Shown here one piece after another: positions 23,601 to 62,068 of a stretch of DNA of 64,000 nt (position 1 is the first letter of the stretch; the number at the start of each line of letters is the position of its first letter). The notes under the pieces are model-generated. The model saw nothing but the letters and a program-made list of their open reading frames with translations. It was not told where the DNA came from and did no database searches. The stretch is from Nannocystis sp. (GTDB taxonomy: Bacteria > Myxococcota_A > Polyangia > Nannocystales > Nannocystaceae): assembly GCF_016717175.1 (NCBI RefSeq), contig NZ_JADKFZ010000004.1, one strand, 5' to 3'. The translations under genes were made by a program, and so were the position numbers.

Positions 23601-25125
23601 TCGCGGGCGCCTGCGTCGGGTCGCAGGGGTCGCGGGGTCCGAGGACGGCGCGCCACACGAGGCCGCGGCGGAGGCCGGCGAGCAGGCCGGCGGTGGTCTG
23701 GCCGCGCAGGCGCCGGATGCTGGCGAAGCGACCGCGGCCCTCGAGCTCGAGGGCCCAGGTCCACAGGCTGCGGGTCGCGCTGTTCAGCTCATCGCAGCCG
23801 CTCGCCGAACGCACCAGCTCGAGCTGGGTCGCCTCCTCGGCGGCATCCCGGGAGATGAGCACGCTGAGCATGGCGATCGGCACGGCGATCACCGACAGGA
23901 CGATCGCGGCGATGACGGCACGGACCCGGGTGCGTTGCTTGCGGCGGGCGGCTGCGGCGACGCGGCCGAGCTCCTCCTCGACGAAGGGGCGCAGCACGCG
24001 GGTGAAGGCGTCGTGGAACAGCTCGACGACCTCGCCGCGGTCGCGGCGGTGGACGATGCGCTCGCGGTCGAGGTGGTCGAGCACTGCGTCGATGCGTGGG
24101 CGCGGGAGCCCCAGCTGGGACGCGAGGACGTCGACCGGGTAGGCCATGCGGACGCCGATCCGCGGCGCGAGCAGGCCGAGCACGCGGGCGGTGTCCTGGC
24201 GGAGCTGGCCGGTGAGCTCGCGGGTCGCGTCCGTCACGAAGGTGGCGACGATGCCGTCGCAGCCGCCGAGCTGGCGGTACAGCGCGAGGGTCAAGCGCGG
24301 CGCGGCGTCGCCGGCGACGGCGGCCCACAGGCGCCGGAGGACGATCTGCAGGAAGGGCAGGGAGATGCCCGCGGGCTGGCTCGTGTCGGTCTTCAGCCCG
24401 CTGGCGACCACGTCGCCGCGCAGGTCGAGCAGCAGCGCCTCGACCAGCCCTGGCTCGACCTCGCCGTGGAATTCGGGCAGGCGCGCGGGCTCGCGGATCG
24501 CCTCCTCGGCCTGCTTGCCGGCCAGCGGCCCCAGGCGGTAGACGGCCTGCGGGATCGTCAGGAAGTGCGGGCGCAGGGCCTCGAGGCTGGCGAGGTACTC
24601 CTCGCGCAGCGACAGCACCACGCGCACCGCTGTGTCGTTGCGCAGCAGCGACCCGAGCGCCGCGCCGAGAGCGTCGAGCTCGGCGGCGTGGCGGATGAAC
24701 ACCTGCTCGAACTGGTCGAGCACGAGGACCAGGCCCTGGGCGTGCGAGGCGGCGGCGAGGCGGGCGGCGGCGGGCAGGTCGCTCGCGCCGGCGCCGAGGC
24801 TCGCGACCAGCGCGGCCTGGATGCTCGCCAGCGGCGATCCGGCCCAGCTGTCGACGTAGACCGGGAGGGCCCCGAGCTCGCGCAGCGCCGGGACGATGAG
24901 GGTCCGCAGCAGCGAGCTCTTGCCGGCGCCGGAGGGCGCGACCATCACCGCCAGCGAGGTGGCGAGGATCGTGTTGCGGACCAGCTTGCCCTCGGGCTGG
25001 CGGCCGAAGAACAGGGCCCGCTCCGACTCGTCGTAGGGGCGCAGCCCGACGTAGGGGCCGGCCGGGCGCGGGCCGAGCGGGCGCGGGCCGAGCGGGCGCG
25101 GGCCGAGCGGGCGCGGGTCGGTCAC
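20605..25125 (-). CDS. nSTAND-type STAND NTPase with ~1000-aa alpha-helical C-terminal region
   Basis: GTG 25125-25123 overlaps upstream stop (GTGA); N-terminal PRPLG x3 then GPYVGLRPYDESERALFFGRQ, Walker A APSGAGKSSL, Walker B LVLVLDQFEQ; the first 515 aa of ORF-track entry 20605-26673 are an out-of-frame shadow of the TIR gene. Confidence 0.8.
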   Translation of the reverse strand: MTDPRPLGPRPLGPRPLGPRPAGPYVGLRPYDESERALFFGRQPEGKLVRNTILATSLAVMVAPSGAGKSSLLRTLIVPALRELGALPVYVDSWAGSPLASIQAALVASLGAGASDLPAAARLAAASHAQGLVLVLDQFEQVFIRHAAELDALGAALGSLLRNDTAVRVVLSLREEYLASLEALRPHFLTIPQAVYRLGPLAGKQAEEAIREPARLPEFHGEVEPGLVEALLLDLRGDVVASGLKTDTSQPAGISLPFLQIVLRRLWAAVAGDAAPRLTLALYRQLGGCDGIVATFVTDATRELTGQLRQDTARVLGLLAPRIGVRMAYPVDVLASQLGLPRPRIDAVLDHLDRERIVHRRDRGEVVELFHDAFTRVLRPFVEEELGRVAAAARRKQRTRVRAVIAAIVLSVIAVPIAMLSVLISRDAAEEATQLELVRSASGCDELNSATRSLWTWALELEGRGRFASIRRLRGQTTAGLLAGLRRGLVWRAVLGPRDPCDPTQAPAKPAALTIVHRGDDSDSPAIVALWRNLAGQHWREHHLPVPLAVLARRDASLADHELKLEIDGGALSVRLTLPSGPPRPGLAVFHDPAAEAPATADPDRERRPAAEAPATADPDRERPSLPWKLLRESGFLTGSLTGFLTGDDPTASHPGRAAAWSAPLWRLLARQHPELATYPASAAEIATTAFARVAADPSLYVTPDFVEAMLARVDRRAQCQASEAALRWSPSCRDDAACRPHVRELLAGRLREAFILAARDGLRGERWPAAVDWLLALEVPPVDRGRQRDFLASELAARLAEDAPTPTRPDPDLPANDHCDDPPPPGHDEIVDMLFAGIPTPRPFGDLSASELLAAIHHPPGLERWLAQPVVARDLPALVRALWWRSEQPERARDQLPWLLHSLPFWHVYCAAANDPQACTATGLLDLLRADPAGPRPTVSWTDQGIDALVHDDPDEATAIFLAAAKRGDLRPDFIANYAAPDTVDQLLRARLDHVCFGDPRRFRGEHPERLDDLSRHFSRTMLDRLADHIPPDGFDRVCKDLLDLGREPATILGTLADPGRDARTGLMLGTNLLRAALESNQFPGYRAQIRGLLNGERGPASAGAGRSAAAAAPDDLSIGAWDTAYDRALDICNEFDSRSCTQLMLDLARDRLPDAALMALADEVARQRIGGPPELLETLLKNLLKPGAFETFTRTCALPLAQLKDKAPSASRLALSWALQQPRDVRRSCLRALRTQLKAPGLAGISASQRRVLTADAERMLGCYDEAGAALGPDSDRTSYDLTLRAFLALRVDLIEAARIADGPLRVVRGQGPGAELHPAFAHLLLGDGFEGHARDFIAGTATEDRHYVAMMLWWRLVQAGRRGEAEKLLSALLPPEQNKGDLDCDKPRSLADAELQKEGDLTPWREHLLCSLRNDQRIVFTRQDYAKPLYSQSPQTYEFFQCEALFFDALRRSANKHDGYEQTLCHVIEAGCYYSYESVLAEQLLRQSTHVCPALQVDRCNAK
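25060..25112. repeat. 15-bp tandem repeat x3.5 (cgagcgggcgcgggc) encoding PRPLG repeats at the N-terminus of the nSTAND gene
   Basis: Direct inspection. Confidence 0.7.
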
Positions 25126-27203
25126 GCGGGTCTCCGGGCCCGCAGGGCGCGGACGAGGGTCGGGAGTTCGATCGAGCTCATGTCGACGTGGAACTGCTCC
25201 CACAGCCGCTGCTCGAGCGTCGAGGCGGGCTCGCGCACGGCGAGCGCACCGCTGCGGCGATCGTCGTCGCGGGCCGCTTCGCGCTGGAGTCGCGGCTCGC
25301 GGCGGAAGAACGCGTGCCCGATCAGGCGATAGTGCCAGATGTCGAGGTTGAAGCCGAGGAACAGCAGGCGCCGGGTGTAAAGCTGCAGGGCGAAGGCGCT
25401 GGGGATCGTCGTGTGCTGGTGCTCGAGCTGGGCGAGGAAGGTGATGTGGTCGCTCTCGGTGATCACGACGGTGTCGAGCTCGCGGTCGCGGACGGCGGGG
25501 TGCTCGGCGAGGAAGGGCGAGCCGAGCAGCTTGTAGATGACGCAGTCGTCGTCGTCGATCTCCGCCTCGAGCTCGGAGGTCAGGCGGACGGCGGCCGCGG
25601 TCGCGGGGTCCCGGCCGCGGGGGTGATGCGCGCTGCGCAGGAGCAGCGCCTTGCCGACGTCGTCGCCGGCCGAGCGGAGGATGTGGCTCACGAGCACGTA
25701 CGGGCGCCCGGCCTCGTCGAGGGCGCGCTCGAGCTCGAGGTCGTGGGTCGTGGAGATCACGAACCATGGCGGCTTCATGTCGAGGATCATGTCGAACGCC
25801 GCCGGCGGCGCGAGCTGGGCCGGTCCGCCGAGGATCTCGCGCAGATCGGCGAGGAAGGGCTGGCGGCGGCGCTCGAACTGCAGCGCCTCCGCGGCGGCGG
25901 CCATCGTCGGGTTGTGGCCGGCGCCGAGGCCGGCGCGCTCGCTGAGCTGCTTGACGATGGCGTAGTAGTTGCGCTGCGAACCGTCCCAGATGCCGTCGCC
26001 GAGGAAGGGGATGAGCTCGCCGCGCCAGAACACCGGGGCGATGCGGTCGACGAACTGTTGCTGCAGCGGGTGGAGCTTGATGTCGGCGAGCACGCTGCCG
26101 CTGCGGCGGCGCAGCTGCATCTCGCTCGGCTTGGTGTTGAAGACCAGCGGCAGGACGCCCTCGCCGAGGGCGACCTGGATCGCCTGCAGGACCTCCTCGA
26201 CGGTGCTGATGCCGTCGTGGTTGCTGTCGGCGGCGTCGTTGCTGAGCGCGTGCAGCAGCAGCCCGGTCAGGGGGCTGTGCGCGTCCTGCCAGGCCTCGGG
26301 GCGCGCCGCCGGGCCCGCGCTGGTGGCCAGCAGGACCTTGCCCGGGCCGGGCCCGAGCTGGGTGCGCAGCTGGGCCTCGACCTCGGCCTTCGCGGTGTCG
26401 CCGTAGCAGGCGTCGAGGACGATGAAGAGGTGGCCGACCTGGGTCTGGTCGAGGAACATCTGCTTGATCAGCGCGAGCGAGACGCCGGCCGGGAGCTCGC
26501 TGTTGCGGGCGGGGAGGAAGGGGCCGAAGCCGGTGAAGCTGACGTGGCCGGCGAAGTACAGCAGGACGAAGTCGTCGTGGCTGGCCGGCGCGAGCAGGTC
26601 GGCGATCGCCCGCATCAGCTGGCGGCCGTCGGGGTCGACGAGGCTGACGACCTCGAACTCGCACTCGGGCCACGTGAGCGCCTCGGCGAGGCGCAGGACG
26701 TTGCGCTCCGCGGCCGGCAGCGCCGGCGCGTCCGCGCCGCGGGACAGCGCGACCAGCAGGGCACGCCGGCCGCTGCGCTTCGGCGCGGACGCGGTGGTCG
26801 CGGGCGGGGCGGCGAGCCAGGCCCGGATGTCCGCGACGAGCTTGCGAAAGGCCGGGGCGCCGCGGTCACCGATCCAGTCGATGAGGTCGATGGTCTGGAT
26901 CTGGTCGTAGGGCTTGGGCGGCGCGACGGGGTCGAGGCGGACCGGGACCAGGACGCCGCGTCGTCGGCCCTCGTCGGCCTCGGAGCGGATCCAGGTCCGC
27001 TGCTCGTCGATCGCGTGCCGCGACCACAGGACGACCACGCAGGCGGCCCGCTCGACCCGCGCCTGCAGCTCGCCGGCGTAGGCCGTGCCGGCGCGGAGGT
27101 CGGCGTCCCACCACACGTCGAGGCCCTCGTCGCGCAGGGCGGTGACGAGGGCTAGGGCGCGCTCGCGATCCTCGCTCGCGTGGCTGACAAAGACCTGGGA
27201 CAT
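25122..27203 (-). CDS. Triple-domain effector: TIR + caspase-like (C14/CHAT) + SIR2-like (SIR2_2 family)
   Basis: TIR: VFVSHASEDRERALALVTALRDEGLDVWWD..CVVVLWS; caspase dyad LLYFAGHVSF / LFIVLDACYGDT; SIR2_2 blocks LIPFLGDGIW, WFVISTTHDLELERAL, VIYKLLGSPF, VVITESDHITFL, LLFLGFNLDIWHYRL. Confidence 0.8.
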   Translation of the reverse strand: MSQVFVSHASEDRERALALVTALRDEGLDVWWDADLRAGTAYAGELQARVERAACVVVLWSRHAIDEQRTWIRSEADEGRRRGVLVPVRLDPVAPPKPYDQIQTIDLIDWIGDRGAPAFRKLVADIRAWLAAPPATTASAPKRSGRRALLVALSRGADAPALPAAERNVLRLAEALTWPECEFEVVSLVDPDGRQLMRAIADLLAPASHDDFVLLYFAGHVSFTGFGPFLPARNSELPAGVSLALIKQMFLDQTQVGHLFIVLDACYGDTAKAEVEAQLRTQLGPGPGKVLLATSAGPAARPEAWQDAHSPLTGLLLHALSNDAADSNHDGISTVEEVLQAIQVALGEGVLPLVFNTKPSEMQLRRRSGSVLADIKLHPLQQQFVDRIAPVFWRGELIPFLGDGIWDGSQRNYYAIVKQLSERAGLGAGHNPTMAAAAEALQFERRRQPFLADLREILGGPAQLAPPAAFDMILDMKPPWFVISTTHDLELERALDEAGRPYVLVSHILRSAGDDVGKALLLRSAHHPRGRDPATAAAVRLTSELEAEIDDDDCVIYKLLGSPFLAEHPAVRDRELDTVVITESDHITFLAQLEHQHTTIPSAFALQLYTRRLLFLGFNLDIWHYRLIGHAFFRREPRLQREAARDDDRRSGALAVREPASTLEQRLWEQFHVDMSSIELPTLVRALRARRPA

Positions 27204-27347
27204 GATCGCAGCGGAGCGCGCAGCGGCTTGTGTACCACCATCGGCCGCTGTGTTGCAGGTGATCGAGGCGGGCTTTCTCGTCGACGTCGTCGATATCGGG
27301 GCCGCGCGAGCGGCCGCGTCCGCGCTGCCCGGCGGCGCCCGGCGGTC

Positions 27348-27785
27348 CTACGGCGAGCTTCGCCGGCGCCGCAGGAGGGGCGTGAGGAGGAGCAGCAGGA
27401 AGGGGGCGGCGGGCGTCCCGGGAGCCACGCGGCAGCCGCTCGTGGTCTTTGCCGGTTGAGACGCCGCGGGGTCTGGCGCTTGTGTCGCTGGCGTCTGCGA
27501 TGCCGGGGTTTGTGATGCCGGCGCTGGTGCTGCCGGCGGGGCCCCGGCCTGACAGCGCAGGCAGTCGTGGCTGACCACCTCGGGCGGCGTGCCCTTCGAG
27601 TAGTCGAGGCGGGAGCAGCGGTCCGCGACGCAGGTCCCGGGGCCGCCGCGGAAGTCGCAGGCGTCGCCGGCCTTGCTGGCGCCGCAGACGAGGTCCTCCG
27701 GGGGCGGCGCCTCGTCGGCGCGGGCCGATGCGGGCAGGACGAGGGCGGCGAGTACGAGGATTGGGAGCGGGAGGCGGGTCGGCAT
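27348..27785 (-). CDS. Small secreted Cys-rich protein with MYXO-CTERM sorting signal
   Basis: Signal peptide MPTRLPLPILVLAALVLPASARA; C-terminal ..SGCRVAPGTPAAPFLLLLLTPLLRRRR (GC + hydrophobic + basic = MYXO-CTERM-like). Confidence 0.6.
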   Translation of the reverse strand: MPTRLPLPILVLAALVLPASARADEAPPPEDLVCGASKAGDACDFRGGPGTCVADRCSRLDYSKGTPPEVVSHDCLRCQAGAPPAAPAPASQTPASQTPATQAPDPAASQPAKTTSGCRVAPGTPAAPFLLLLLTPLLRRRRSSP

Positions 27786-27890
27786 GTCTGTGGATATCTC
27801 CGGGGCTGGGTCGATTAGCGAGGTGGTGCTCATGCGGAGTCGGCGTGGAGCAGGGCCCGGAGGCAGGGGATGACGCCGCGAAGTTGGGGC

Positions 27891-28385: not shown

Positions 28386-28400
28386 GCGGCGCCTCCCCGG

Positions 28401-28490
28401 TGGCGCGGCCGAGAAGGGTGGCGCGGCCGAGAAGGGTGGCGCGGCCGAGAAAGGTGGCGCGGCCGAGAAGGGTGGCGCGGCCGTGGAGAA
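28401..28490. repeat. 18-bp tandem repeat x5 (tggcgcggccgagaaggg)
   Basis: Direct inspection; lies in the 5' leader (or N-extension) of the tsaA-like gene. Confidence 0.8.
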
Positions 28491-28609
28491 TCTGCGGAGA
28501 TCCGGGCCGACATCACGGCGAGGGTGACGCGCGGGCGCGGGGTCTGTCAAGCGGGCCACGCCGCCGCGGGCTGTCACCCGTGTTCGCGCCGTCGTGGGCC
28601 CGATTTATC

Positions 28610-28715
28610 GACTCGCTTTGTCCGGACTTGCTTTGTCTGGACTCGCTTTGTCCGGACTTGCTTTGTCTGGACTCGCTTTGTCCGGACTCGATTTGTTCGC
28701 ACTCGCTTGGGGGGC
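28610..28715. repeat. 15-bp tandem repeat x7 (ggactcgctttgtcc / ggacttgctttgtct alternating, i.e. 30-bp unit) in a divergent intergenic region
   Basis: Direct inspection; GGAC...GTCC termini; no spacers so not CRISPR. Confidence 0.8.
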
Positions 28716-28806
28716 CGCCGCGAGCGATCGCGCGTGCGGCCGCGGTCCGTCGGCGCGCGATCATGGATCACGAGGCGGCCGTTCTTTGCCGGTACACTCG
28801 CGGCGC

Positions 28807-29439
28807 GTGGCACCTCGATGGCTCGGGTCGGTGGCGGTGATGGGGCTTGTCGTCGCCTGTCCTTCGGGACAGGCGACACGGCCGCCAGACACGACGGCCG
28901 CGCCGCCGAGCGAGCCCGTTGGCGCCGCCGCGCCGCCGGCGGTGGATCGCTGTCCGCCGGGGAGCACAGCGGAGGGCTGCCCGCCGCTCGACACCGACGG
29001 CGACGGGATCGTCGACGGCGACGACAAGTGCCCGGACAACCCCGAGACCCGGAACGGCTATGAGGACGCGGACGGCTGCCCGGACGAGATCCCGGTGGCG
29101 GTCACGCGGTACAAGGGGACGATCCCGAAGGTACGCTTCGAACGCGACTCGGCGGCGATCAGCGAGTCGCAGGCGCTGCTGGACGCGGCCGTGGCCGTGT
29201 TGCTGGACTACCCGGCCATGCAGGTCGAGATCTCCGGGCACACGGCCGCGGGGGAGCGGCCGGAGCTGTCGCTGCGCCGCGCCGAGGCGGTGCGCGACTA
29301 CCTGGTCGCGCACGGCGTCGCGGGCGAGCGCCTGCGGGTCCGCGGCGCCGCGGAGGAGGAGCCGATCGGTGACCTGGCGACCGCCGCTGGCAAGGCCAAG
29401 AACCGACGCGTCGAGTTCACGATCCTGGAGTCCGAATGA
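28807..29439 (+). CDS. OmpA-family lipoprotein with TSP3 repeats
   Basis: Probable GTG start 28807 giving WLGSVAVMGLVVAC lipoprotein signal; TDGDGIVDGDDKCPDNPE repeats; OmpA C-terminal domain NRRVEFTI. Confidence 0.7.
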   Translation: MAPRWLGSVAVMGLVVACPSGQATRPPDTTAAPPSEPVGAAAPPAVDRCPPGSTAEGCPPLDTDGDGIVDGDDKCPDNPETRNGYEDADGCPDEIPVAVTRYKGTIPKVRFERDSAAISESQALLDAAVAVLLDYPAMQVEISGHTAAGERPELSLRRAEAVRDYLVAHGVAGERLRVRGAAEEEPIGDLATAAGKAKNRRVEFTILESE

Positions 29440-29475
29440 GCGGATTGCGGATCGCAATGGAGGCGGCTGGCGATC

Positions 29476-31518
29476 GTGCGTGAATGTGCGGAGCTGGAGA
29501 TCGGGCTGTCGCGGCGCGACGCGGGGTCGTACGCGGTCGAGCTGCGCTTCACGCAGCCGGGCAGCGACGCCGATGTGCGGGTCGGCGAGGGCGAGGGGCT
29601 GGCCTGCGCGCTGGATCTGGCGGGCCTCAAGGAGCTGCTGGCGCAGCCGGAGGCGTACGGGCGGGCGCTCGGGGCGGGCCTGTTCGCGGCGCCGAAGGTG
29701 GCCGAGACGCTGGCCCGCGCCCAGGCGGCGGCCGCCAGTCAGGACCTGCCGCTGCGCGTGCGCCTGGCGATCGCGGTCGACGTGGCCGAGCTGCACGGGC
29801 TGCGCTGGGAGCTGCTGCGGACGCCGGACGGGACCCTGGTCAGCGCGGGCGAGCGGATCTTGTTCTCGCGTTACCTTGCGAGCGTCGACTGGCAGACGGT
29901 CAAGCTGCGGCCGCAGGCGTCGCTGCGGGCGCTGATCGTGATCGCTGCGCCGGCCGGGTTGGCGGCGTACGGGCTGGCGGAGCTCGACGTCGCGGCCGAG
30001 CTGGCGCGCGCGCAGGCGGTGCTGGCGGGGATCGAGACGGTGGCGCTGGCGGGGCCGGGTCAGGCGACCGCGACGGCGATCATCGACGCGCTGCGCAGCG
30101 GCTTCGACGTGCTGTACGTGGTGGCGCACGGGTCGTGGCAGCGTGGTGAGGCGTTCGTGTGGCTCGAGGACGCGGCCGGCGCGGTGGCCCGGATCGCCGG
30201 GGCCACGCTGATCGCCCGGGTCGCCGAGCTGCAGCAGCGGCCGCGGCTGTGCGTGCTGGCCTCGTGCGAGAGCGCGGGCGCGGGCGCGGGGGAGGACCCC
30301 GCGGTGCTGGCCGCGCTCGGGCCGGGGCTGGCGCGCGCCGGGGTGGCGGCGGTGGTGGCGATGCAGGGCCCGCTGAGCGTGGCGACGGCGGCGGTGTTGC
30401 TGCCGCGGCTGTTCGCGGAGTTGTTGCAGGACGGGCAGGTCGATCGGGCGCTGGCGGTCGCTCGCGCGGCGGTCCGTGAGCGGAGCGACTGGTGGATGCC
30501 GGTGCTGTTCATGCGCCTGCGCTCGGGACGGATCTGGTACACGCCGGGCTTCGGCGGCGAGGGCGGGCAGTTCGAGAAGTGGCCGGCGCTGCTCCGCAGC
30601 ATCGCCCAGGGGCGCTGTACGCCGGTGCTCGGGCCGGCCCTCGGCGACGCGCTGCACGGGTCGTCGCGCGAGCTGGCCCACCGCTGGGCCGACGAGTACG
30701 GCTACCCGATGGCGCCGGGCGGGCGCGAGGATCTGCCGCACGTGGCGCAATACCTGGCGGTCCACCAGGACGAGCGGTTTCCGATGGACAAGCTCGAGGG
30801 GTCGCTGCGCGACGCGGTGGTGTCACGATTCCCGCAGGTGCTCACGGGGGGCGCGGGCGAGGGCACGCTCGACGAGGTGCTGGCGCGGGTGGCCGACTGG
30901 CGGCTGGCGCAGGGGAGCTTCGATCCGTACCAGGTGCTCGCGCGGCTGCCGTGTCCGCTGTATGTGACGACGGCGAGCGACGGGCTGCTGGCGCATCACC
31001 TGCGTCTGGCGGGTCGTTCACCGCAGGTCGCGCTGTGCCCGTGGAACCCCGACGTGGTGGCCGACGCGGCCGTCGCCGAGGCGGCGAGCGTGGAGCGGCC
31101 CGCGATATATCACCTGTTCGGGCATATCTCGGCCCCGAACTCGCTGGTGATCACGGAGAACGATATCTTCGACTTCTTGATCAGCGTGAGCGCGGATCGC
31201 GAGGTGATCCCGCCGCGGGTGCGGGCGGCGCTGGTCGACTCGTCGCTGCTGATCCTCGGGTTTCCGATCGACGATTGGAAGTTTCGCGTGTTCTTTCGCA
31301 GCCTGATGAACCGGGCCGGCGGGGGCCGGCGCAAGCGCTACACGCACGTGGCGGCGCAGATCGATCCGGAGGAGGCGCAGACGATCGACCCGGCGCGCAC
31401 GCGGCGTTACCTCGAGGAGTACTTCGAGGGCTCGGACATCACGATCTATTGGGGCAGCGCGGAGGACTTCCTGCGCGAGCTCGCCGGGCGGCTGCCGGGG
31501 GGGAGGCCGGGCGCTTGA
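29476..31518 (+). CDS. CHAT (caspase-like) + SIR2-like (SIR2_2) fusion effector
   Basis: CHAT dyad YVVAHGSWQRGE / CVLASCESAGAG; SIR2_2 blocks VLGPALGDALHGSS, LYVTTASDGLL, IYHLFGHIS, LVITENDIFDF, LLILGFPIDDWKFRVFF; GTG start. Confidence 0.8.
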   Translation: MRECAELEIGLSRRDAGSYAVELRFTQPGSDADVRVGEGEGLACALDLAGLKELLAQPEAYGRALGAGLFAAPKVAETLARAQAAAASQDLPLRVRLAIAVDVAELHGLRWELLRTPDGTLVSAGERILFSRYLASVDWQTVKLRPQASLRALIVIAAPAGLAAYGLAELDVAAELARAQAVLAGIETVALAGPGQATATAIIDALRSGFDVLYVVAHGSWQRGEAFVWLEDAAGAVARIAGATLIARVAELQQRPRLCVLASCESAGAGAGEDPAVLAALGPGLARAGVAAVVAMQGPLSVATAAVLLPRLFAELLQDGQVDRALAVARAAVRERSDWWMPVLFMRLRSGRIWYTPGFGGEGGQFEKWPALLRSIAQGRCTPVLGPALGDALHGSSRELAHRWADEYGYPMAPGGREDLPHVAQYLAVHQDERFPMDKLEGSLRDAVVSRFPQVLTGGAGEGTLDEVLARVADWRLAQGSFDPYQVLARLPCPLYVTTASDGLLAHHLRLAGRSPQVALCPWNPDVVADAAVAEAASVERPAIYHLFGHISAPNSLVITENDIFDFLISVSADREVIPPRVRAALVDSSLLILGFPIDDWKFRVFFRSLMNRAGGGRRKRYTHVAAQIDPEEAQTIDPARTRRYLEEYFEGSDITIYWGSAEDFLRELAGRLPGGRPGA

Positions 31519-34500
31519 CCGCGACGTCGCCAGCAGGCTCGCCGGCAAACCCGTACGTCGGTCCGCGGGCGCTGCGGAGCGGGGAGGCGCTGTTCGGCCG
31601 CGACCGCGAGGTGGCGCGGCTGTTCGACCTGATGCTGGCGGAGCGCATCGTGCTGCTGTATTCGCCGTCGGGCGCGGGCAAGAGCTCGCTGCTGCAGGCG
31701 GGGCTGGTCCCGCGACTGCACGCCGAGGGCTTCACGGTCCGGCCGGTCGTGCGGGTCGGGATGGCGCCGCCGAGCGACGCGCCGGCGGGGGTCAATCGTT
31801 ATGTGCTGAGCACCTTGCTGAGCCTGGAGGAGGATGTCCCGAAGGACAGGCAGCTCGACCTCGCCGCGCTGGCGGGGTGCACGCTCGCGGCGTACCTCTC
31901 GCGGGGGTCCGAGGCGGACGCCGACGAGGTGCTGTTGATCGATCAATTCGAGGAGCTGCTGACGGTCGACCCGACGGCGGTGGCGGCGAAGCGGGTGTTC
32001 TTCGCCCAGCTCGGCGAGGCGCTGCGGGACACCCGGTTGTGGGTGGTGGTGGCGATGCGCGAGGACTTCATCGCCGGGCTCGACCCGTACCGGGCGGCGG
32101 TGCCGAAGAAGCTGCACACGACCTTTCGCCTCGAGCTGCTCGGGCGCGAGGCGGCGCTGCTGGCCGTGCGGGGGCCGGCTGCAGCGGCAGGGGTGACCTT
32201 CGAGCTCGCGGCGGCGGAGCGGCTGGTCGACGACCTGCGACAGGTGCGGGTGCCGATCGTCGACGGCGGCGTCGAGCTGCGACCGGGGCCGCACGTCGAG
32301 CCGGTGCAGCTGCAGGTGGTTTGTCGCGGGCTGTGGGCGGCGTTGCCGGCGGACGATCGCAGCATCGGGCTCGCCGACCTGGCCGAGCTCGGCGACGTCG
32401 ACCAGGCGCTGGCCCGCTACTACGACGCGCAGGTCCTGGCGGCCGCGCGCGCGAGCGGGGCGCCCGAGCGGGCCCTGCGGCTGTGGCTCGAGCGCGAGCT
32501 GGTGACGGTCCAGGGGCTGCGCACGCAGGTGCTGCGCACGCCGGGGGCGACGCAGGGGCTCGGCGACGCGGCCCTGACGGCGCTGATCGACTCGCTCGTG
32601 CTGCGCAGCGAGACGCGCCGCGGGATGATGTGGGTCGAGCTGGCGCACGACCGCATCGTCGCGCCGCTGCGGGCGAGCAACGCGGCGTGGATGGCGAAGA
32701 ACCTCGCGCCGACCTCGCGGCAGGCGGCGCTGTGGGACAGCCGCGGGCGCCCGGAGTCGCTGCTGCTGGCGACGGCGGCGGAGGCCGAGGCGCTGCTCGC
32801 GGCGGCGGGGGAGTGGACGGCGACCGAGCGGCTGTTCCTCGAGCAGAGCCGGATCGTCCGCCGGCGCGAGGCGGCGACGCGGCGTTATCAGCGGACGATC
32901 CGCGTGCTCGCGGCGGTGGTGGGGCTGCTGGTCGTGGCCGGGCTGTCGGTCGGGATCGTGCTGATCCGGCGGGCCGCGGCGGCGGCGCTGGAGGAGGCCG
33001 AGCAGGAGGCGAGGGCCAGCGCCGAGGCGGCCGCGCGCGCGCAGGCCGAGCAGCGCGCGGCGGAGCAGGCGTTGATCCGTCAGCTCATCGCCCAGGTCGC
33101 GCTGTACCGCGAGCAGCAGCCCGAGCTCGCGGCGCTGCTGGCCGTCGCGGCCTCGACGCGGCTCGCGGACCCGTGGCAGCGCAAGGCGGCGCTGCTCAAC
33201 GCCGCGGTGACGCAGCCGCAGCTGCGGTCGCGGCTGGCCTCAAGGCCAGGTGACGATGGGGCGGGCCCGGCGGCGTTCGTGCAGATCGCGGCGGCGGGCG
33301 GGCAGCTGTACGCGCTCGATCGCCGCGGGCAGGTGCTGCGCCTCGGGCTCGAGGATCGCGGGCAGGCCTCGCTGCTGCCGGCGGGGACGAGGGCCGGGGA
33401 CTTCGCGGCGGACCCGGTGCGCGAGCGCGTGGCGATCGTCGCGGGTCAGGCGATTGAACTGTGGGAGGTCGGGGCGACGACGCCGACGGCGAGCTTCGTG
33501 CTGCCCGCGGATCCGGCGGGGCTGGGCGACGCGCCGCGGCCGGACGCGCGGGTGTGGCTCGAGGGGCTCGGCTTCTCGGCGGACGGTCGCACGCTCGCGG
33601 TCGTGCGCCGTCGCAGCGACGGGCCGAGCCGCGGCTTCGTGATCGACGTCGAGGCGCGATCGATCCGGCCGCTCACGGGCAAGTTGCCGGTGTCGGCGCT
33701 GGCACTGGCGCCCGACGGCGCGCTGGCGGTCGCGGGGCTGCTCGCGGTGGACGGGTCGATCGTCGTGTTCTCGGGGCCGACGCTGGCGCGCGGTGTGCTG
33801 ACGCCGGGTCACGCGGATGTCGGGCGGGTGTACCTCGCCCGCTTCGATCCGCATCGGCCGCGGCTGCTGACCGCGGGCGAGGGCGGGGCGGCGACGCTGT
33901 GGACGGTCGAGGGCGGGACGCTGAGCGCACCGCGGCCGCTCCCGCTGGGCGGCGGCAACGTCCGGGACGCGCTGTTCCTCGCGGACGGCAAGCTGGTGAT
34001 CGCCACGGAGACGCGGATCTCGGTGTGGAGCGGCGAGCCAGAGACGCCGTGGGGGAGCCCGATCACGCCGCCGACGCGGGCGACGGCCACGCTCGCGGCG
34101 GTCGGCGCGGACGGGCTGCAAGTCGCGGTGGTGTCGCTGGCCGACGCGCCGATCCACGTGTTCGACCCGCGGCGGCTGGCGCCGTGGCAGCTGGCGGCGC
34201 CGCGGGTGCCGATGACCGAGGGCGGCGACGCGGCGTTTCAAGGCGTGGCCCCGCGGGTGGCGATCGACCGGGCGGGTGCGCGGGTCGCCGCGACGAGCTT
34301 CGACCGGCGCGAGGGCGGCCGGGTGACCGTGCTCGACGTGGCCAGCGGGAGCTCCGTCGTCACGGCGGCGGGGCAGGGCGAGCAGTTCATGGCCCTGGCC
34401 TTCGCCGACGCCGGCAAGCTGGTGGCGATCGATGCGGCCGGGGCGGTGACGGCGTGGACGGTCGCGGGCGGCGCGGCGCAGACGCTGTGGAAGCTGCCGC

Positions 34501-35298
34501 AGCGGCCGCTGCGGGTCGCGCTGGCGGTCGATCCAGCGGGCCTCGCGGTGGCGGCGGGCGTGGCGTTCGGGGCGACGAGCGTGACGCTGATGGCAGAGCA
34601 AGCGGTGGGGACGGAGCCCTCGCCGCGCACGAGCACGATCGCGGCCGGGGTGCCGATCACGGCGCTGGCCCTCGATCACGCGGCGGAGCGCCTCGCGGTG
34701 GCGACCTGCAGCGAGCGGATCGGCCTGGCGACGTGCGCACGCGGCGAGGTCCGGGTGTACGCGGTCGCCAGCGGGGCCGAGGTCGCGGGTCCGCTGGCGG
34801 TCGATGGCGTGCACGGGCTGGTGTTCGCGGCCGACGGTCGACGCCTCGCCGGGCTCGTGCCCGGCGCGCCGCCGGTGGTGTGGGAGCTCGCCGACGGCGA
34901 GCGCCTCGCGTTGACGGTGCGCCGCTCGCTCGGCGAGTTCATCGCGGCCGACTTCTCCGCGGACGGCGACGTGCTGCTCGCCAGCGCCGAGGCCGACAAC
35001 GCAGCGGTGGCGCTGACGCTGTGGGATCTGCGCTCCGGCGAGGGGCTGGCGCCGCCGCTGGTCGCCCACAACCCCGCGGTCGGCAGCTTCGATCCGGGGG
35101 CGCAGCGGTCCGTGCTGCTGGCGGCGCACAGCGGGCTGGTGGTCAGCAGCAGCTTCGACGGGGTGCTGCTGTGGGATATCGCCGACGCGACGCTGACGAG
35201 CCGCGCGTGCACGCTGGCGGGGCGCGAGCTGACGAGCGCGGAGTGGACGAGGTTCCTCGGCCGCGGCGAGCCGCAGCAGGCGCAATGCGGCGCGCCGC

Positions 35299-35577
<279 letters not shown>

Positions 35578-35762
35578 GCGGCAGGCGGGCACGGCTCCGC
35601 ACGGGCGCTCGGGCTCGGCACGCGCGCGCTGAAGCGCTACCATGCGCGCAGCGAGACCGCTTGCGACAGCCGCTTGACCTCGACACCGAACACCACCGAT
35701 CTCCCGATCTGCGGGCCGCTCTGGCGAGCCTGGCCGATCAGGGAGAGACCGAGCGCGGGGCC

Positions 35763-37433
35763 GTGTTCACGCGGCCTGAGGTGGTCGCCTGCCTCCTCGA
35801 TCTCGCGGGGTACACCGTCGACCAGCCGCTGCATACCTGGCGGATCCTCGAGCCGTCGTTCGGCGCGGGTGACTTCTTGCTCGCGGCGGTCGAGCGCCTG
35901 CTGACGTCGTTCGCGGCGTTCGGGGGCCTGCCGAGCGCGGCGCTCCAGCTGCGCGAGGCGGTGCGGGCGGTCGAGGTGCACCCGGCGTCGTTCGCCGCGA
36001 CGCGCGAGGCGCTCCACTGGCGCCTGGTCACGTGGGGCGCGAGCCGACGCGATGCGGGGGCGTTGTGTGACAGCTGGCTGCTGCGCGACGACTTCCTGCT
36101 GGCGCAGCTGACTGGGCGCTTTGATGTCGTGGTTGGCAACCCGCCCTACGTGCGACAGGAGCGGATCGCGGGGCCCTTGCTCGCGGAGTACCGTCGGCGC
36201 TACGCGACGATCTACGACCGGGCGGACCTGTATGTGCCGTTCTTCGAGCGCGGGCTGCAGCTGCTGCGGGACGGCGGGCGGCTCGCGTTCATCTGCGCCA
36301 ACCGCTGGCTCAAGAACAAGTACGGCGGGCCGCTACGCGGCATGATCGCCCGCGACTTCCACCTCTCGCACTACATCGATATGGCGGGCACCGATGCGTT
36401 CCAGTCGGAGGTCATCGCGTACCCGGCGATCACGGTGATCCGCCGCGGCGAGGGCAGCGTGACCCGGCTCGCGCGGAGGCCAGACGTCACGACGGAGCTG
36501 TGCGAGCTGACGCGCCTGCTGAGCGCACCCGGTCCCGTGCTCGACGAGCGGGTCGAGGAGGTGGAGCACGCGGTCCGCGGCAGCGAGCCGTGGCTGCTCG
36601 ACGCCGCCGATCAGCTGCGCGTGATCCGTCGGCTCGAGCGCGACTTCCCGGAGGTCGAGGAGGCCGACTGCAAGGTGGGGATCGGCGTGGCGACCGGCGC
36701 CGATCGGGTGTTCATCGGCGACCACGCGGCGCTGCCCGTGGAGGACTCGCGCAAGCTGCCGCTGCTGATGGCGCGTGACCTTCAGGACGGCGCGATCGTC
36801 TGGGGCGGCAAGGGCATCGTCAACCCGTTCGAGGCGGACGGCAGCCTGGCCTCGCTCGACCGCTATCCGGCCTTCGGCGCGTACATCCGCGAGCACGCGG
36901 ACGTGCTTTGCAAGCGCCACGTCGCCCGGAAGAGCCCGAGCTGGTACCGCACGATCGACCGCGTGTACGCCGAGCTCACCGGCACGCCGAAGCTGCTCAT
37001 CCCGGACATCAAGGGCGAGCCGATGGTCGTGTTCGACGAGGGCAAGTTCTACCCGCACCACAACCTGTACTACGTGACCTCGTCGACCTGGGACATGACG
37101 GCGCTGGCGACGGTGCTGCGCTCGTCGATCGCGGTGCTGTTTGTGTCGACGTACTGCGTGAAGATGTCGGGCGGCTTCCTGCGCTTCCAGGCCCAGTACC
37201 TCCGGCGGATCCGTGTCCCGCGCTGGCAGGACGTGACGAGGGCCCAGCGCGCCGCGCTGATCGCCGCGGCGCCGACCGACCGCGCGGCGATCGATCACGC
37301 CGCGTTCGCGGCCTACGGGCTCACGGCCGCGGAGGCCCGGACGGCGCAGCGGGCGGCGAGCGCGGCGCTGGTGCAGGGGCGGGCCTCGGTTGATCCCGCG
37401 CTGACGCCGGCGAGCACCCTGGCTATCTCTTGA
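35763..37433 (+). CDS. Gamma-class N6-adenine DNA methyltransferase (Eco57I/TaqI-like) with C-terminal TRD
   Basis: Motif [15 protein letters not shown], motif [11 protein letters not shown]-terminal TaqI_C-like region; probable GTG start 35763 (upstream Arg-rich stretch of ORF 35499 looks non-coding); no REase domain or adjacent REase gene. Confidence 0.7.
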
Positions 37434-37638
37434 GGCTCAGGGGAAATTGCGCAATCAAGGTGCCTGTGAGGGTCACGGTGCCCCCCTTGGTGCTCTCGAC
37501 AATTTCGTTCGACGCAAAAGTGCCCCCAATGCAACGTCACTTCGCGGCGCGCTCACAAGTCCGACCGCTGCGCGTCAGACCGAAGCTGCCGCGAGCACGA
37601 CCTTCCGGGAGGCGGGATTCGCGGGTGGCCCCGTGCGC

Positions 37639-38868: not shown

Positions 38869-38917
38869 CCTTCGTCATTGTTCACAACCTCGACCCGGCC
38901 GAGTCAGTCCCCGAGTC

Positions 38918-40810: not shown

Positions 40811-40817
40811 AGTCAAC

Positions 40818-43009: not shown

Positions 43010-43048
43010 GGCCCGCACGTCGACACGCGCGCCACGTCGCGCTCGTCC

Positions 43049-47407: not shown

Positions 47408-47529
47408 GAGCCCCCGCCCGGCTGGGTTCACAAGCCAGCGACGGCTCCGTCGAGCTCTCGTTGGCGGGGGCCCTCGCGTGTCGATCGTCGATCGACCGCG
47501 GCACCCACGGATATCAAGGGAGTGGGAGC

Positions 47530-58820: not shown

Positions 58821-60068
58821 TCAGTTGTTGAAGCAGTCGGCGCGGCACTTGTATTCGAGGGCGCACAGGGCGAGGTCGCGGCAGTCGGCCTCGACCGCCT
58901 CGGGCGTGCAGTCGTCCTGGCCGATCAGGCCCTTCACGACGCAGCTGCGCCACCTGGGCACCGCGCAGGCCTTCAGATCGACGGCGCACTGCTTGCGCAC
59001 GCACTTCCCACAGACCGGGTTCTTCGGCGCCGGGATGCAGTACTTGAGCGGCGGCGGGAGCGGGGCCACGGTGGGGAGCGGGGCCGGTGGCGGCGTGCCG
59101 GTATCGGTGTCGGTATCGGTGTCGGTATTGGTATCGGTATCGGAATCGGTGTCGGTATCGGTGTCGTTCGTCGGATCACCGGTGCTGCCGGAGGTCGTGA
59201 GATCGGCGGTGTCCTGGGCGCCGGTGCTGGCCGGCTCGACGGTGGGCTCCGCCAGCGGCGAATCGCCGGTGGGCGGCTTGCTGGCCCTGGGCCCGGCGGG
59301 GGCGCGGAGGCGGCCGTTCTCCTGCTTGCATTCGGTCAGCGCCGGGCTCTCGTCGCAGAGCTGGACGCTGGCGGCGGCGCCGGCGAGCGCGCCCGTGCCG
59401 GCGCAGGCGGTGGCGACCACGGCGACCTCGGCCGTCTTGGTGCTGACATACGCGATCGCGACGAGGGGGAAGGAGAGCAGCCATTTCTTGCCGCCGGGGC
59501 GGATCCTGATGTCGTTCGCCAGCAGGCGCCAGCGCCCGCGCAGGAGGTCGCGGAAGGCCCCGAGGTCCTCCTCCTTGACGCCGAGCACGAGGTGCAGGCC
59601 GCCGAGCGGCATCGCGGCCATGCGCGTGAGCGCCTCGACGAAGCGGGTGACCTCGGCGGGGTCGCGCTTGTTGTCGAGGAGCTGCTCGAGGCGGTAGAGG
59701 GCGATCAGCAGCGGTCGATCGGAGCGACGCTCGGCGCGTTGCAGGGCCGCCTCGAGCGCCGCGAGCGGCTTTTGGTCCGGGGGGCCGGCCTCGAGCTCGA
59801 GCTGGCGGTTGATGTGATCGACGAGCTGCTGGACGGTCGGGCCCTGCTTCTTGTCCCAGCGATCGACGATGACGGTGCGGACGTCGACCTGGTCGCGCAG
59901 GCGCGGCAGCACCTCCTCGACCACGAAGGCGTCGAGCTTGGTGGCGGTGGGGGCGTAGATCGTCGAGCAGCGGTACGCCATCAGCTGGCCGACCAGGATC
60001 GTGGCCAGCGCGGCGGGGTCGCTGCGGCGCATCGCCCGGCGATCGACGCGGAGCTCGGCCTTGCTCAT
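58821..60068 (-). CDS. Single-pass membrane protein: N-terminal ~200-aa cytoplasmic helical domain, TM, DTDTD low-complexity linker, extracytoplasmic Cys-rich (14 Cys) C-terminal domain
   Basis: ATG 60068 with GGAGGTG SD, ATGA overlap with upstream CHAT-SIR2 stop; TM FPLVAIAYVSTKTAEVAVVATACAGTGALAGAAA; C-terminus KYCIPAPKNPVCGKCVRKQCAVDLKACAVPRWRSCVVKG..CRADCFNN. Confidence 0.65.
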   Translation of the reverse strand: MSKAELRVDRRAMRRSDPAALATILVGQLMAYRCSTIYAPTATKLDAFVVEEVLPRLRDQVDVRTVIVDRWDKKQGPTVQQLVDHINRQLELEAGPPDQKPLAALEAALQRAERRSDRPLLIALYRLEQLLDNKRDPAEVTRFVEALTRMAAMPLGGLHLVLGVKEEDLGAFRDLLRGRWRLLANDIRIRPGGKKWLLSFPLVAIAYVSTKTAEVAVVATACAGTGALAGAAASVQLCDESPALTECKQENGRLRAPAGPRASKPPTGDSPLAEPTVEPASTGAQDTADLTTSGSTGDPTNDTDTDTDSDTDTNTDTDTDTDTGTPPPAPLPTVAPLPPPLKYCIPAPKNPVCGKCVRKQCAVDLKACAVPRWRSCVVKGLIGQDDCTPEAVEADCRDLALCALEYKCRADCFNN

Positions 60069-62068
60069 GGCTTCACCTCCTCGATGATCTGCGTCAGGTC
60101 GGGCAGGGCCATCGCCACGGCGCGCACGGTGCCCTGGCCGAACAGGCCGCCTGCGCCGCGGTCCCAGATGTCCTTCTCGTTGTTCTCGGGGGCGACGACG
60201 GCGACGCTGACGCGGGAGGGCGGCCGCTGGTCGAGCAGCCAGCGCAGGAGCATGCGGTGGCGCCACTCGAGCACGGAGATGCCGACGCAGAGCATCGGGT
60301 GCGCGCGCAGCCAGCCGACGAACTGACACTCCCAGTCGGGCGGGAAGATGTCGCGGAGATCGATGAGGCCCTGGATATGGTCGTCCTCGGTGAGCTGCGG
60401 GGTGGTGAGCACCGGCTGCGTCTCGGGCGAGTAGCCGCCGTAGAGGCGGAAGATCATGAAGTCGCGGTCCAGGTCGACGTCGGGCGGAGGATCGTCGTTC
60501 TCCTCCCACTCGGGCTTGCCCGCGGCGCGCGTCAGGATCAGGCGCGCCTCGCCGCTGCCGGGCGCCGCCGGCTGAATGACGTGGATCGTGCGGCCCGGGT
60601 GGAGGTCGGCGATCGTCTGCTCGAGGAAGGGCAGCCACAACAGGGTGGTATGCGCGCCGGGCCGCAGGGCCCTGGCGATCGCGCGGATGAAGGGCGGCGC
60701 CTCGAGCTCGACGGTGGTGCCGATGGTCTTCTGGAACAGGCGGCTCAGCTTCCCCTTGCCGTGGCGGAGGGAGAAGCGCTGGGCGACGGCGCTGAGGCCG
60801 AGCCGCTCGGCGTCCTTCTCCCCGTCCTTGCCGAGCTCGGCGACGAGGTCCCGCAGCAGCTCCGCGTGCCCGGGGATGGCGGCGCCGCTGCCCCCGAGCA
60901 CCAGCGAGAAGCGCTCACGCAGCAGGTTGCCGAGGGCGGGGTCGACCTCGCCGAGCGCCCCGCCGGTGAGGCCCGCGACCGGCGCGACCAGGCGGCGCTT
61001 CCTGAAGTCGAGGATCCGCGAGTCCGGGCCGCGCAGGTAGAGCACCGGCGAGAACACCTCGGCGCCGCGCTCGATGAAGGTGCGGCGGGTCGCCTGCAGG
61101 CTGGCGGCGACGTCGCCCATGCCGTCCCTGGTGCCGGTGAGCGTGCGATAGAAGACCGTGGAGATGTCGCGGGCGACCTCGGCCTTGACGGGCCACAGGT
61201 GGGCGAGCACCGCGTCGGCGCCGTCGCGGGCGAGGATCTCGGCGGCGCTGGCGAAGGCGCCGGGCCGGGCCCCGCTGCAGGCCTCGAGCACGACCAGGCG
61301 CAGCTCGGCGCCGAGGTTGGTGCGCAGCTCCTGGGCGAGGGTCTCGGCGAGCAGGAAGCCCGACTCGCCAGCGCCATCCTCGACGAGGTAGAGGCAGGGG
61401 TTTTGCCGCTCGTCGGTGCCGCCGTGGCCGATCCAGTGGATGATGTGCGGCGCGTCGCTGCGGCGCAGGCGCTCGAACAGGCGCGGGCCCGCGGCCTGGT
61501 CGCCGACGATCGGGTCGAGCCATTGCAGCGAGCCCTCGGCGATCGACTCGTGCAACGCGGCCTTGAGGCTGGTCAGCTTGTCCTCCTCGCCGAGCGGCGA
61601 GATGGCGAGCAGACGGACGGCGCGGCGGATCTCGCGGTTCTCGTAGGGCTCGGTCGAGTTGACGCCGCGGGTGACGAGCAGCTCAGGCAGGCAGCCGATG
61701 AAGTCGCGGGCGGTCTCCGGGCGACACATGACCTCCCACGGGAAGCGCTGCAGCTCGGGGTCGCGGATCATCAGGCGCAGCAGGAGCTTGCGGTCCTGCG
61801 CGCGGGCGACCTCGCCGAGGCGCACGAGGAGGTCGCGGAGCTGGTCGCGGAAGAACGCGGCATGCAGCTCGCGGGCGCCGGTGATCACGTGCTCGGGGAG
61901 CGCCGAGCTGGCGGAGACGGCCCGCCGCACGCCGCTCGCCAGGCCCGTCAGGCGCCCGAGGTTGATCGGCGCGAGGTCGAAGGCGGCGATACGCTCGCCG
62001 CGAGAGCCGCGCGCCGACACGCGGATCACCTGATTGTCGCGTTCGACGTCGATCTCTATCCACGACAT
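60065..62068 (-). CDS. CHAT (caspase-like) + SIR2-like (SIR2_2) fusion effector (third copy)
   Basis: CHAT dyad HIIHWIGHGG / LVVLEACSGARPG; SIR2_2 blocks FSLVLGGSGAAIPG, FMIFRLYGGYS, VLTTPQLTEDDHIQ, MLCVGISVLEWRHRMLL. Confidence 0.75.
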   Translation of the reverse strand: MSWIEIDVERDNQVIRVSARGSRGERIAAFDLAPINLGRLTGLASGVRRAVSASSALPEHVITGARELHAAFFRDQLRDLLVRLGEVARAQDRKLLLRLMIRDPELQRFPWEVMCRPETARDFIGCLPELLVTRGVNSTEPYENREIRRAVRLLAISPLGEEDKLTSLKAALHESIAEGSLQWLDPIVGDQAAGPRLFERLRRSDAPHIIHWIGHGGTDERQNPCLYLVEDGAGESGFLLAETLAQELRTNLGAELRLVVLEACSGARPGAFASAAEILARDGADAVLAHLWPVKAEVARDISTVFYRTLTGTRDGMGDVAASLQATRRTFIERGAEVFSPVLYLRGPDSRILDFRKRRLVAPVAGLTGGALGEVDPALGNLLRERFSLVLGGSGAAIPGHAELLRDLVAELGKDGEKDAERLGLSAVAQRFSLRHGKGKLSRLFQKTIGTTVELEAPPFIRAIARALRPGAHTTLLWLPFLEQTIADLHPGRTIHVIQPAAPGSGEARLILTRAAGKPEWEENDDPPPDVDLDRDFMIFRLYGGYSPETQPVLTTPQLTEDDHIQGLIDLRDIFPPDWECQFVGWLRAHPMLCVGISVLEWRHRMLLRWLLDQRPPSRVSVAVVAPENNEKDIWDRGAGGLFGQGTVRAVAMALPDLTQIIEEVKP

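Follow-up and report, generated by a model that had tools for sequence, protein, structure and literature searches.

We analysed a window of 64,000 nucleotides (the whole stretch of DNA under study) from Nannocystis sp., assembly GCF_016717175.1, contig NZ_JADKFZ010000004.1. It encodes three proteins, P1, P2 and P3, in which a protease domain is followed by a domain related to the SIR2 NADases of prokaryotic immunity. A sequence-only reading of the window had described three such proteins with substitutions at the canonical catalytic positions of SIR2, and we found the three open reading frames (ORFs) exactly where it had placed them, with every motif string that it had quoted present in P1, P2 and P3. 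The window has a GC content of 73%, and all three genes lie in the coding frame with high G+C at third codon positions (high GC3). The genes and domains of the three systems are given below, with the evidence for each in brackets.

25122-27203, minus strand: P1, TIR-caspase-SIR2-like protein, 693 amino acids (ORF; Pfam)
26838-27194, minus strand: TIR domain of P1, residues 4-122, W71-x-x-x-E75 kept (Pfam TIR_2, 1.7e-21)
26178-26768, minus strand: caspase domain of P1 (Peptidase_C14/paracaspase-like), dyad His220/Cys266 present (Pfam Peptidase_C14, 1.3e-08, residues 146-342; AGH and DAC motifs)
25134-26036, minus strand: SIR2-like domain of P1, about residues 390-690, with T486 (STTHD) at the Asn position and L560 (KLLGS) at the His position (hhalign; Pfam SIR2_2, 5e-10, 40.1 bits, residues 482-673)
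20605-25125, minus strand: N1, nSTAND1 NTPase partner of P1, 1506 amino acids, GTG start on the TGA stop of P1 (Pfam nSTAND1, 3.3e-43)
29476-31518, plus strand: P2, CHAT-SIR2-like protein, 680 amino acids (ORF; Pfam)
29659-30492, plus strand: CHAT protease domain of P2, dyad His218/Cys264 present (Pfam CHAT, 7e-25; His and Cys columns nearly invariant in the P2 family)
30580-31491, plus strand: SIR2-like domain of P2, about residues 369-672, with A500 (TTASD) at the Asn position and F548 (HLFGH) at the His position (Pfam SIR2_2, 1.3e-16, 61.4 bits)
31515-35342, plus strand: N2, nSTAND1-transmembrane-WD40 partner of P2, 1275 amino acids, TTG start on the TGA stop of P2 (Pfam nSTAND1, 2.4e-37)
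60065-62068, minus strand: P3, CHAT-SIR2-like protein, 667 amino acids (ORF; Pfam)
61070-61876, minus strand: CHAT protease domain of P3, dyad His215/Cys264 present (Pfam CHAT, 1.4e-17)
60074-60940, minus strand: SIR2-like domain of P3, about residues 377-665, with L476/L477 (TTLLW) at the Asn position, W478/L479 at the Asp position and Y543 (RLYGG) at the His position (AlphaFold2, Foldseek, hhalign)
58821-60068, minus strand: N3, partner of P3, 415 amino acids, ATG start on the TGA of P3 (start overlap; hhalign)
56859-58808, minus strand: X4, clan-CD Peptidase_C25-like protein with SHG and AC motifs, directly downstream of N3 (Pfam C25, 9e-05, sub-threshold)

The CHAT/caspase-SIR2 architecture proposed earlier was recovered, with additions and one reservation. 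The N-terminal TIR domain of P1 and the nSTAND1 partner genes had been overlooked, and the SIR2_2 match of P3 (E=0.06, 13.9 bits) falls under the 24.5-bit cutoff. The His/Cys dyads of the proteases are intact in all three proteins and nearly invariant across the P2 and P3 families, and a profile of the P1 family matches the MALT1 paracaspase (7e-11). In the P1 TIR domain, E75 falls on the Glu of WPARE in the Brucella TcpB/BtpA TIR structure 4c7m (phmmer alignment), a Glu of the kind that we take to be the catalytic residue of TIR NADases.

P1, P2 and P3 share only about 25-32% identity, over short stretches (BLASTP). They are distant relatives, then, rather than the three "copies" of the sequence-only reading, and identities of this order rule out a recent triplication. 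P2 matches a "CHAT domain-containing protein [Nannocystis sp.]" at 100% identity. Within the P2 family, conservation peaks in the linker between the CHAT and SIR2-like domains (residues 340-368, 30493-30579; SGRIWY.PGFG...FEKWPALLRSI), with 75% mean pairwise identity against about 59-60% for both domains. P2 and P3 are present at 99-100% identity in a collection of 5.8 billion proteins, in which the C-terminal half of P1 has no near-identical protein (best match 47% identity). A stop-to-stop ORF of 2022 amino acids (20605-26673, minus strand) overlaps P1 in another frame; given this overlap, the P1 region may be mis-called by gene callers.

Catalytic positions and conservation of the SIR2-like domain

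Single-protein phmmer searches of the PDB reached ThsA only marginally (E 0.6), and family profiles were needed. As catalytic references we used N112/H152 of ThsA and N133/H171 of DSR2. A profile of 65 P2-family sequences matched SeThsA (4.6e-12) and BcThsA (8.9e-10) in the PDB. It aligned YWTTNYDRLIE of ThsA with IYITTnvDnLLe, and VVYKMHGDVEHP of ThsA with LVYHLFGrleep, placing A500 of P2 on N112 (the Asn of TTNYD) and F548 on H152 (the His of KMHG). Profile-profile comparison with an alignment of ThsA/KomC fragments (hhalign) was consistent with this relationship for the P2 family (98.7%, E 2.5e-16) and for the P1 family (95.8%, E 8e-9), where STTHD fell on TTNYD (T486 at the Asn) and KLLGS on KLHGD (L560 at the His).

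P3 required a less direct route. Its comparison with the ThsA/KomC fragments gave no significant match (hhalign, E 0.067), and the only PDB match of the P3-family profile was to a solved CHAT protein (8tl0, across the GHG...AC region), with none to SIR2. Because the direct match to ThsA is not significant, the SIR2 assignment of P3 rests on transitive profile matches and a fold search. The P3 family matched the P2 family across the CHAT and C-terminal domains together (99.1%, E 1.4e-18) and the C-terminal family of P1 (97.6%, E 4.4e-12; both hhalign), and the AlphaFold2 model of P3 (pLDDT 91) matched ThsA at E 6.5e-9 (Foldseek). In P3, Y543 occupies the His position and either L476 or L477, according to register, the Asn position. 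Since the segment TTLLWLP contains no Asn or Asp at all, P3 also lacks the Asp of TTNYD, which is retained in P1 and P2 and is required for DSR2 activity (PMC10981675).

The rest of the domain is well preserved. The SIR2 Rossmann fold and its helical insertion (the "lid") are present, as judged from secondary structure and from 270 residues aligned to ThsA against 179 to SAMD9. A W-x-[FYH]-R motif after the GF..D strand, not found in ThsA, is common to the P1, P2 and P3 families (DIWHYR, DDWKFR and LEWRHR).

By these alignments, the canonical NADase Asn and His are missing from P1, P2 and P3. Profile, profile-profile and fold evidence all bear out this claim of the sequence-only reading, which is not an alignment artefact. 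That reading had named a proper profile alignment as a possible refutation; run against ThsA/KomC, such an alignment places no His or Asn at the catalytic positions. The loss is not attributable to chance, as the matches exceed the threshold by a wide margin and entire families have the substitutions fixed.

Among 120 close homologues of P2, the His position is occupied by F (107), Y (9) or L (4), and the Asn position by N (55), A (33), D (14) or other residues. The same pattern was seen in 150 representatives of 50%-identity clusters, gathered by exhaustive phmmer (His position F127/Y11/L11/A1; Asn kept in 80), and at the His position in 81 copies taken from 79 loci of species-level genomes (F72/L4/Y4). 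The P3 family, found in Nannocystis and Sorangium with several paralogs per genome, has L476 in 119 and Y543 in 117 of 121 sequences. In the P1 family, every member covering the position has the Leu of KLLGS, and N or T occurs at the Asn position; these statistics are thin, since a word-indexed search with the C-terminal half of P1 gave 8 relatives only, and not P1 itself. The catalytic His was thus found in none of the 150 representatives, the 81 genomic copies, the 121 P3-family sequences or the P1-family members covering the position, while the Asn position is relaxed, with N in only about half of the sequences.

Despite these substitutions, the domain is under strong purifying constraint and is not decaying. 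In the P2 family, mean pairwise identity reaches 60% in the SIR2-like domain and 59% in CHAT; the corresponding values in the P3 family are 50% and 57%. The GAGxS loop keeps its G-x-G in the 150 representatives (G144, P93, G110). H546 of P2 (31111-31113), two residues before the lost catalytic His (YHLFG), is H in 112 of the 150. This position is Lys in P1 and in the active ThsA and Arg in P3, and the -2 His is for that reason unlikely to be a relocated catalytic base.

The family is also very large, with 3678 clusters at E<=1e-3 and 925 at E<=1e-30 (50% identity), and a CHAT plus SIR2_2 Pfam architecture is already visible in public annotation. The pairing of protease and SIR2 is accordingly not rare, contrary to the earlier impression of an uncommon tandem. 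A protease-SIR2 family of this size that has no catalytic His should not be counted among NADase effectors. P1, P2 and P3 have the fold of the defence SIR2 NADases, and they are not to be filed with them because the defining catalytic features fail.

Partner genes and other neighbours

A 4-nt overlap joins each of the genes for P1, P2 and P3 to the gene that follows (GTGA, TTGA and ATGA, respectively), and each is translationally coupled to the gene for an nSTAND1 NTPase or its dead derivative. N1 and N2 have a GAGKS P-loop, and their NODs start within about 12-25 residues of the N-terminus. The N2 NOD gave no match to PDB sequences, Avs5 included. In N1, one transmembrane-like segment (residues 399-427, about 23845-23931) is followed by a large C-terminal region without known domains; in N2, a similar segment (residues 460-490, about 32892-32984) precedes C-terminal WD40 propellers. 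Just before the NOD, the N-terminus of N1 carries three in-frame PRPLG repeats (25030-25125, minus strand). Hydropathy gave the same arrangement in each nSTAND1 partner examined (N1 and N2, and those at related loci L001, L003, L004 and L009), with one strongly hydrophobic, transmembrane-like segment that adjoins the NOD and separates it from the large C-terminal region. This suggests that the nSTAND1 partners are single-pass membrane STAND receptors whose sensor is possibly extracytoplasmic.

The pairing extends well beyond Nannocystis. An nSTAND1 NOD starts at most 400 nt downstream, on the same strand, in 64 of the 72 genome loci with enough downstream sequence (89%), drawn from Chloroflexota, Acidobacteriota, Actinomycetota, Proteobacteria and others. 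It is also seen at L001, L003, L004 and L009 (from Anaerolineae, an 11-Mb Chloroflexia genome, Sorangium and a relative of P1). The N-terminal effector varies (CHAT, caspase, TIR plus caspase, TIR plus an unassigned region, or C25 plus CHAT) while the SIR2-like domain and nSTAND1 stay constant. In three proteins (P0345, P0343 and P0358) the SIR2-like domain is fused to nSTAND1 in gene order; a fourth (P0317) has the order nSTAND1-CHAT-SIR2-like, and a further fusion (P0388) has a C-terminal EAD7 adaptor appended.

The P3 system departs from this scheme. N3 has no Pfam match, and with two orthologues it matches the nSTAND1 NOD (hhalign, 97.4%, E 1.3e-11). Its Walker A reads PTATKLD instead of PSGAGKS and its Walker B LYRLEQ instead of LDQFEQ, and after the NOD come a hydrophobic segment, a linker rich in Thr and Asp, and a C-terminus rich in Cys. 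Since neither Walker motif survives, the P3 system pairs a dead SIR2 with a dead NTPase. N3-type partners also stand next to relatives of P3 at 76% and 60% identity (L005 and L007), and a Sorangium paralog 45% identical to P3 has an ordinary nSTAND1-WD40 partner. ORFs homologous to X4 occur in 27 of the 79 related loci, mostly on the same strand, and X4-like domains are fused to CHAT-SIR2 in L067, P0335 and probably P0255; X4 itself is probably a third component, and peptidases of its type may act in this way or form part of a protease cascade. A paralog of X4, encoded on the strand of N2 and 3.4 kb downstream of it, is a possible third component of the P2 system. This paralog and the remaining neighbours in the window are as follows.

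19297-20589, plus strand: SLOG (LSDAT_prok) plus SLATT/DUF4231 effector with two transmembrane segments (Pfam, 2.3e-56 and 8e-25)
28594-29439, plus strand: OmpA-family gene upstream of P2, same strand
35343-37433, plus strand: Eco57I/TaqI_C/N6_Mtase-type methyltransferase, starting right after the stop of N2
37447-38868: ORF with a weak Metallophos_2 match, after the methyltransferase
38723-40810, plus strand: paralog of X4 (42% identity) with a C-terminal helix-turn-helix (tblastn 1.5e-103; Pfam C25 weak, plus HTH_28)
62097-63893, minus strand: OmpA-family gene upstream of P3, same strand

With these genes, the window looks like a conflict or defence island. The SLOG-SLATT gene is convergent with N1, 15 bp from its 3' end, and adjoins the sole TIR-containing system. 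One may speculate that its product receives a nucleotide signal made by the P1 TIR domain, or it may be an unrelated defence gene. OmpA-family genes also stand directly upstream of relatives of P3 (L005, 5421-6977; L007, 5702-6985), and none was seen at the Chloroflexota and Sorangium loci examined; their adjacency could reflect lineage-specific operon membership or coincidence. Repeated units at 28400-28700, with direct repeats at 28635-28657 and 28665-28687, lie near the start of the first OmpA-family gene. A promoter scan of the GC-rich window yielded nothing useful.

Proposed role of the SIR2-like domain

Having observed a conserved domain without its catalytic residues beside a constant NTPase partner, we propose that P1, P2 and P3 would each supply the effector of an NLR-like conflict or immune system built from two genes, or in some cases three. 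The reading that we prefer, and that we would accept about as readily as doubt, is that the SIR2 domain has been exapted as a non-catalytic scaffold linking a STAND sensor to effectors (CHAT/caspase, TIR) that are activated by oligomerisation. The N-terminal enzymes (the CHAT or caspase protease, with TIR in P1) are of the type usually switched on by induced proximity. The ThsA-type SIR2 fold, complete in other respects, lost its His long ago and, in P1, P2 and P3, its Asn as well; its NADase role would be gone, and the domain would serve as a constant non-enzymatic module linking the effector to the nSTAND1 NTPase of the overlapping gene. That partner would span the membrane once, with its NOD at the N-terminus in the cytoplasm and a large sensor (WD40 in N2) at the C-terminus, and detection of a cue would lead to its oligomerisation. 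Docking on the NOD or beside it, and perhaps associating with one another, the dead SIR2 domains would gather the protease and TIR domains, and this gathering would activate the effectors, with the C25-like peptidase possibly among the downstream targets. The data show the fold, the missing catalytic residues, the strong purifying selection, the gene pairing and the fusions; the docking of SIR2 on the NOD, the oligomerisation-driven activation and the absence of NADase activity are what we infer.

Related proteins offer precedents for such a mechanism. The SIR2-like domain of SAMD9 is non-catalytic, touches the NOD and forms SIR2/SIR2 dimers needed for activation (PMC13600222), and filamentation activates Avs5, which has the order SIR2-NOD-sensor (PMC11897194). 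The solved structures of ThsA, KomC, Avs5 and FAM118B, the closest relatives by fold, are all helical or filament assemblies (entry titles; PMC11897194). Self-association is therefore ancestral and something that a dead domain could keep.

Several points weigh against the coupling scaffold. The evidence for a contact between the SIR2-like domain and the NOD is indirect. Moreover, the fusions were seen in metagenome assemblies, two of them as fragmentary ORFs, while 8 of the 72 loci have unrelated neighbours and no adjacent nSTAND1. The separate EAD7 adaptor of P0388 suggests that the SIR2-like domain is not always enough for coupling. The lid and the G-x-G loop are kept, unlike in SAMD9, so a ligand pocket may persist, which fits a sensor as well as a scaffold. 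Finally, the conserved polar residues (the -2 His of YHLFG, H in 112/150, and TE-D-H in P1 and P3) could form an unrecognised active site. The general idea of the sequence-only reading, that these domains are sensors or scaffolds and not NADases, agrees with a His that was never found and with a domain conserved like the protease. Among sensor, scaffold and non-canonical enzyme, genomic context favours the coupling scaffold.

The best-surviving alternative, which we consider rather unlikely, is a ligand-gated switch, in which the dead SIR2 domain would bind NAD+, ADP-ribose or a TIR-made signal of the ADP-ribose type without cleaving it and so license the adjacent protease allosterically, as SLOG does in ThsA and the C-terminal domain may do in the type IV Thoeris caspase. 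Such a switch can coexist with docking. The conserved G-x-G of the GAGxS loop and the retained lid speak for it, as do the TTNYD Asp of P1 and P2. P1 has, in addition, a TIR domain in cis with its catalytic-type Glu and an adjoining SLOG-SLATT gene, and signalling from TIR to caspase is known in type IV Thoeris (bioRxiv 10.1101/2024.10.24.620036). However, most family members, P2 and P3 included, have no TIR or other signal-generating enzyme in their operon, and in P3 the Leu, Trp and Tyr that replace Asn, Asp and His would fill or remodel the nicotinamide-ribose site.

It is more improbable that the SIR2-like domain is a cryptic enzyme (an NADase, an ADP-ribosyltransferase or other) acting through non-canonical residues. 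Its conservation is very strong for a non-enzyme, the -2 His is kept in the P2 family, and the P1 and P3 families show little or no variation in a T-E-x-D-H set. Yet these candidate replacements differ among the three families and the His position is always hydrophobic or aromatic (F/Y/L); mutation of either the Asn or the His strongly lowers the NADase activity of DSR2 (PMC10981675). That the domain is a functionless relic of a former SIR2 effector, as the lost catalytic residues alone might suggest, is scarcely credible for a domain conserved across phyla as well as the active protease domain, kept in hundreds of 50%-identity clusters and marked by derived motifs, W-x-[FYH]-R among them, that the three families have in common and in fixed form.

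Extended beyond the window, the coupling-scaffold reading leads to a bolder scenario that we advance tentatively and regard as doubtful in its full form. A large, cross-phylum clade of ThsA-like SIR2 domains would long ago have turned from NADase into a possibly ligand-gated, non-catalytic platform that nucleates protease and TIR domains on transmembrane nSTAND1 receptors of extracytoplasmic cues. In bacteria it would correspond to the SIR2-like-on-NOD switch of SAMD9 and might serve as a model for the evolution of that switch, with P3 as an extreme form in which SIR2 and NTPase are both dead.

SIR2 domains in prokaryotic immunity are usually treated as NAD+-depleting effectors, and pipelines label proteins such as these "SIR2-like". 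If the coupling scaffold is true, it would be a prokaryotic precedent for the non-catalytic SIR2-like domain that controls SAMD9, and a route to study how separate effector subunits reach NLR-like ATPases when no Death-like or EAD adaptor is involved. It would also point to STAND receptors that cross the membrane once and carry WD40 sensors on the outside. Homologous loci in the culturable Serratia ureilytica and Cupriavidus (L079, L086 and L072) make the reading testable.

Comparison with known systems

The ThsA/KomC-type defence SIR2 NADases (Pfam SIR2_2) share the fold of the domain described here. They have the catalytic His, whereas the present families have F, Y or L in its place and a relaxed or lost Asn. 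The present proteins also have no SLOG or other sensor domain, and their SIR2-like domain is C-terminal to a protease, is encoded next to a STAND NTPase and carries the derived W-x-[FYH]-R motif. In Avs5 (AVAST type 5), SIR2 is an active NADase effector (PMC11897194, PMC12931631), in contrast to the apparently dead domain here. Protease or TIR effectors here precede SIR2, the effector and NTPase halves are in most cases encoded as two proteins, and the NTPase belongs to the nSTAND1 type and has a transmembrane segment.

SAMD9/SAMD9L, the animal antiviral STAND proteins, resemble the present systems in the role proposed above. Their SIR2-like domain has no NAD lid, whereas the helical insertion is kept here, and the similarity is far weaker than that to ThsA, with no sequence-level link. 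SAMD9 is a single soluble polypeptide with a tRNase effector; the components here are separate proteins, fused only in rare relatives. Type IV Thoeris (bioRxiv 10.1101/2024.10.24.620036) combines a TIR protein with a caspase-type protease that has a C-terminal non-protease domain after the caspase, as in P1, and this domain has been proposed to bind N7-cADPR. Type IV Thoeris has no STAND and divides TIR and caspase between two proteins, while P1 has both in one. Neither PADLOC v2, which predates type IV Thoeris, nor NCBIfam has a specific model for any component.

In the literature searched, which left out most subscription papers, we found no description of this module, whether under CHAT-SIR2, inactive SIR2 in STAND systems or PF13289, so that this absence is not proof. 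The pairing of SIR2-like domain and nSTAND1 is thus common, yet without description in that literature. Among the nearest relatives are the nSTAND1 and EACC1-caspase systems of multicellular bacteria (Kaur, Burroughs, Iyer, Aravind 2020/2021; PMC7159879, PMC8195603), two papers that contain no description of a SIR2-like domain in these systems or of its inactivation. EACC1 itself is ruled out as the identity of the constant module, being a small transmembrane domain encoded by a separate gene. The window has no EACC1 gene, and the ORF upstream of P1 (27348-27833) has no Pfam match. Even so, the Pfam nSTAND1 partner and the myxobacterial host are held in common, the caspase of P1 is nearest to the "EACC1-associated" type (NCBIfam 2.8e-17, below cutoff), and the operon of a P1 relative (L009) reads EACC1, caspase-SIR2_2, nSTAND1. 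The P1, P2 and P3 operons belong with these nSTAND1 and EACC1-caspase conflict systems.

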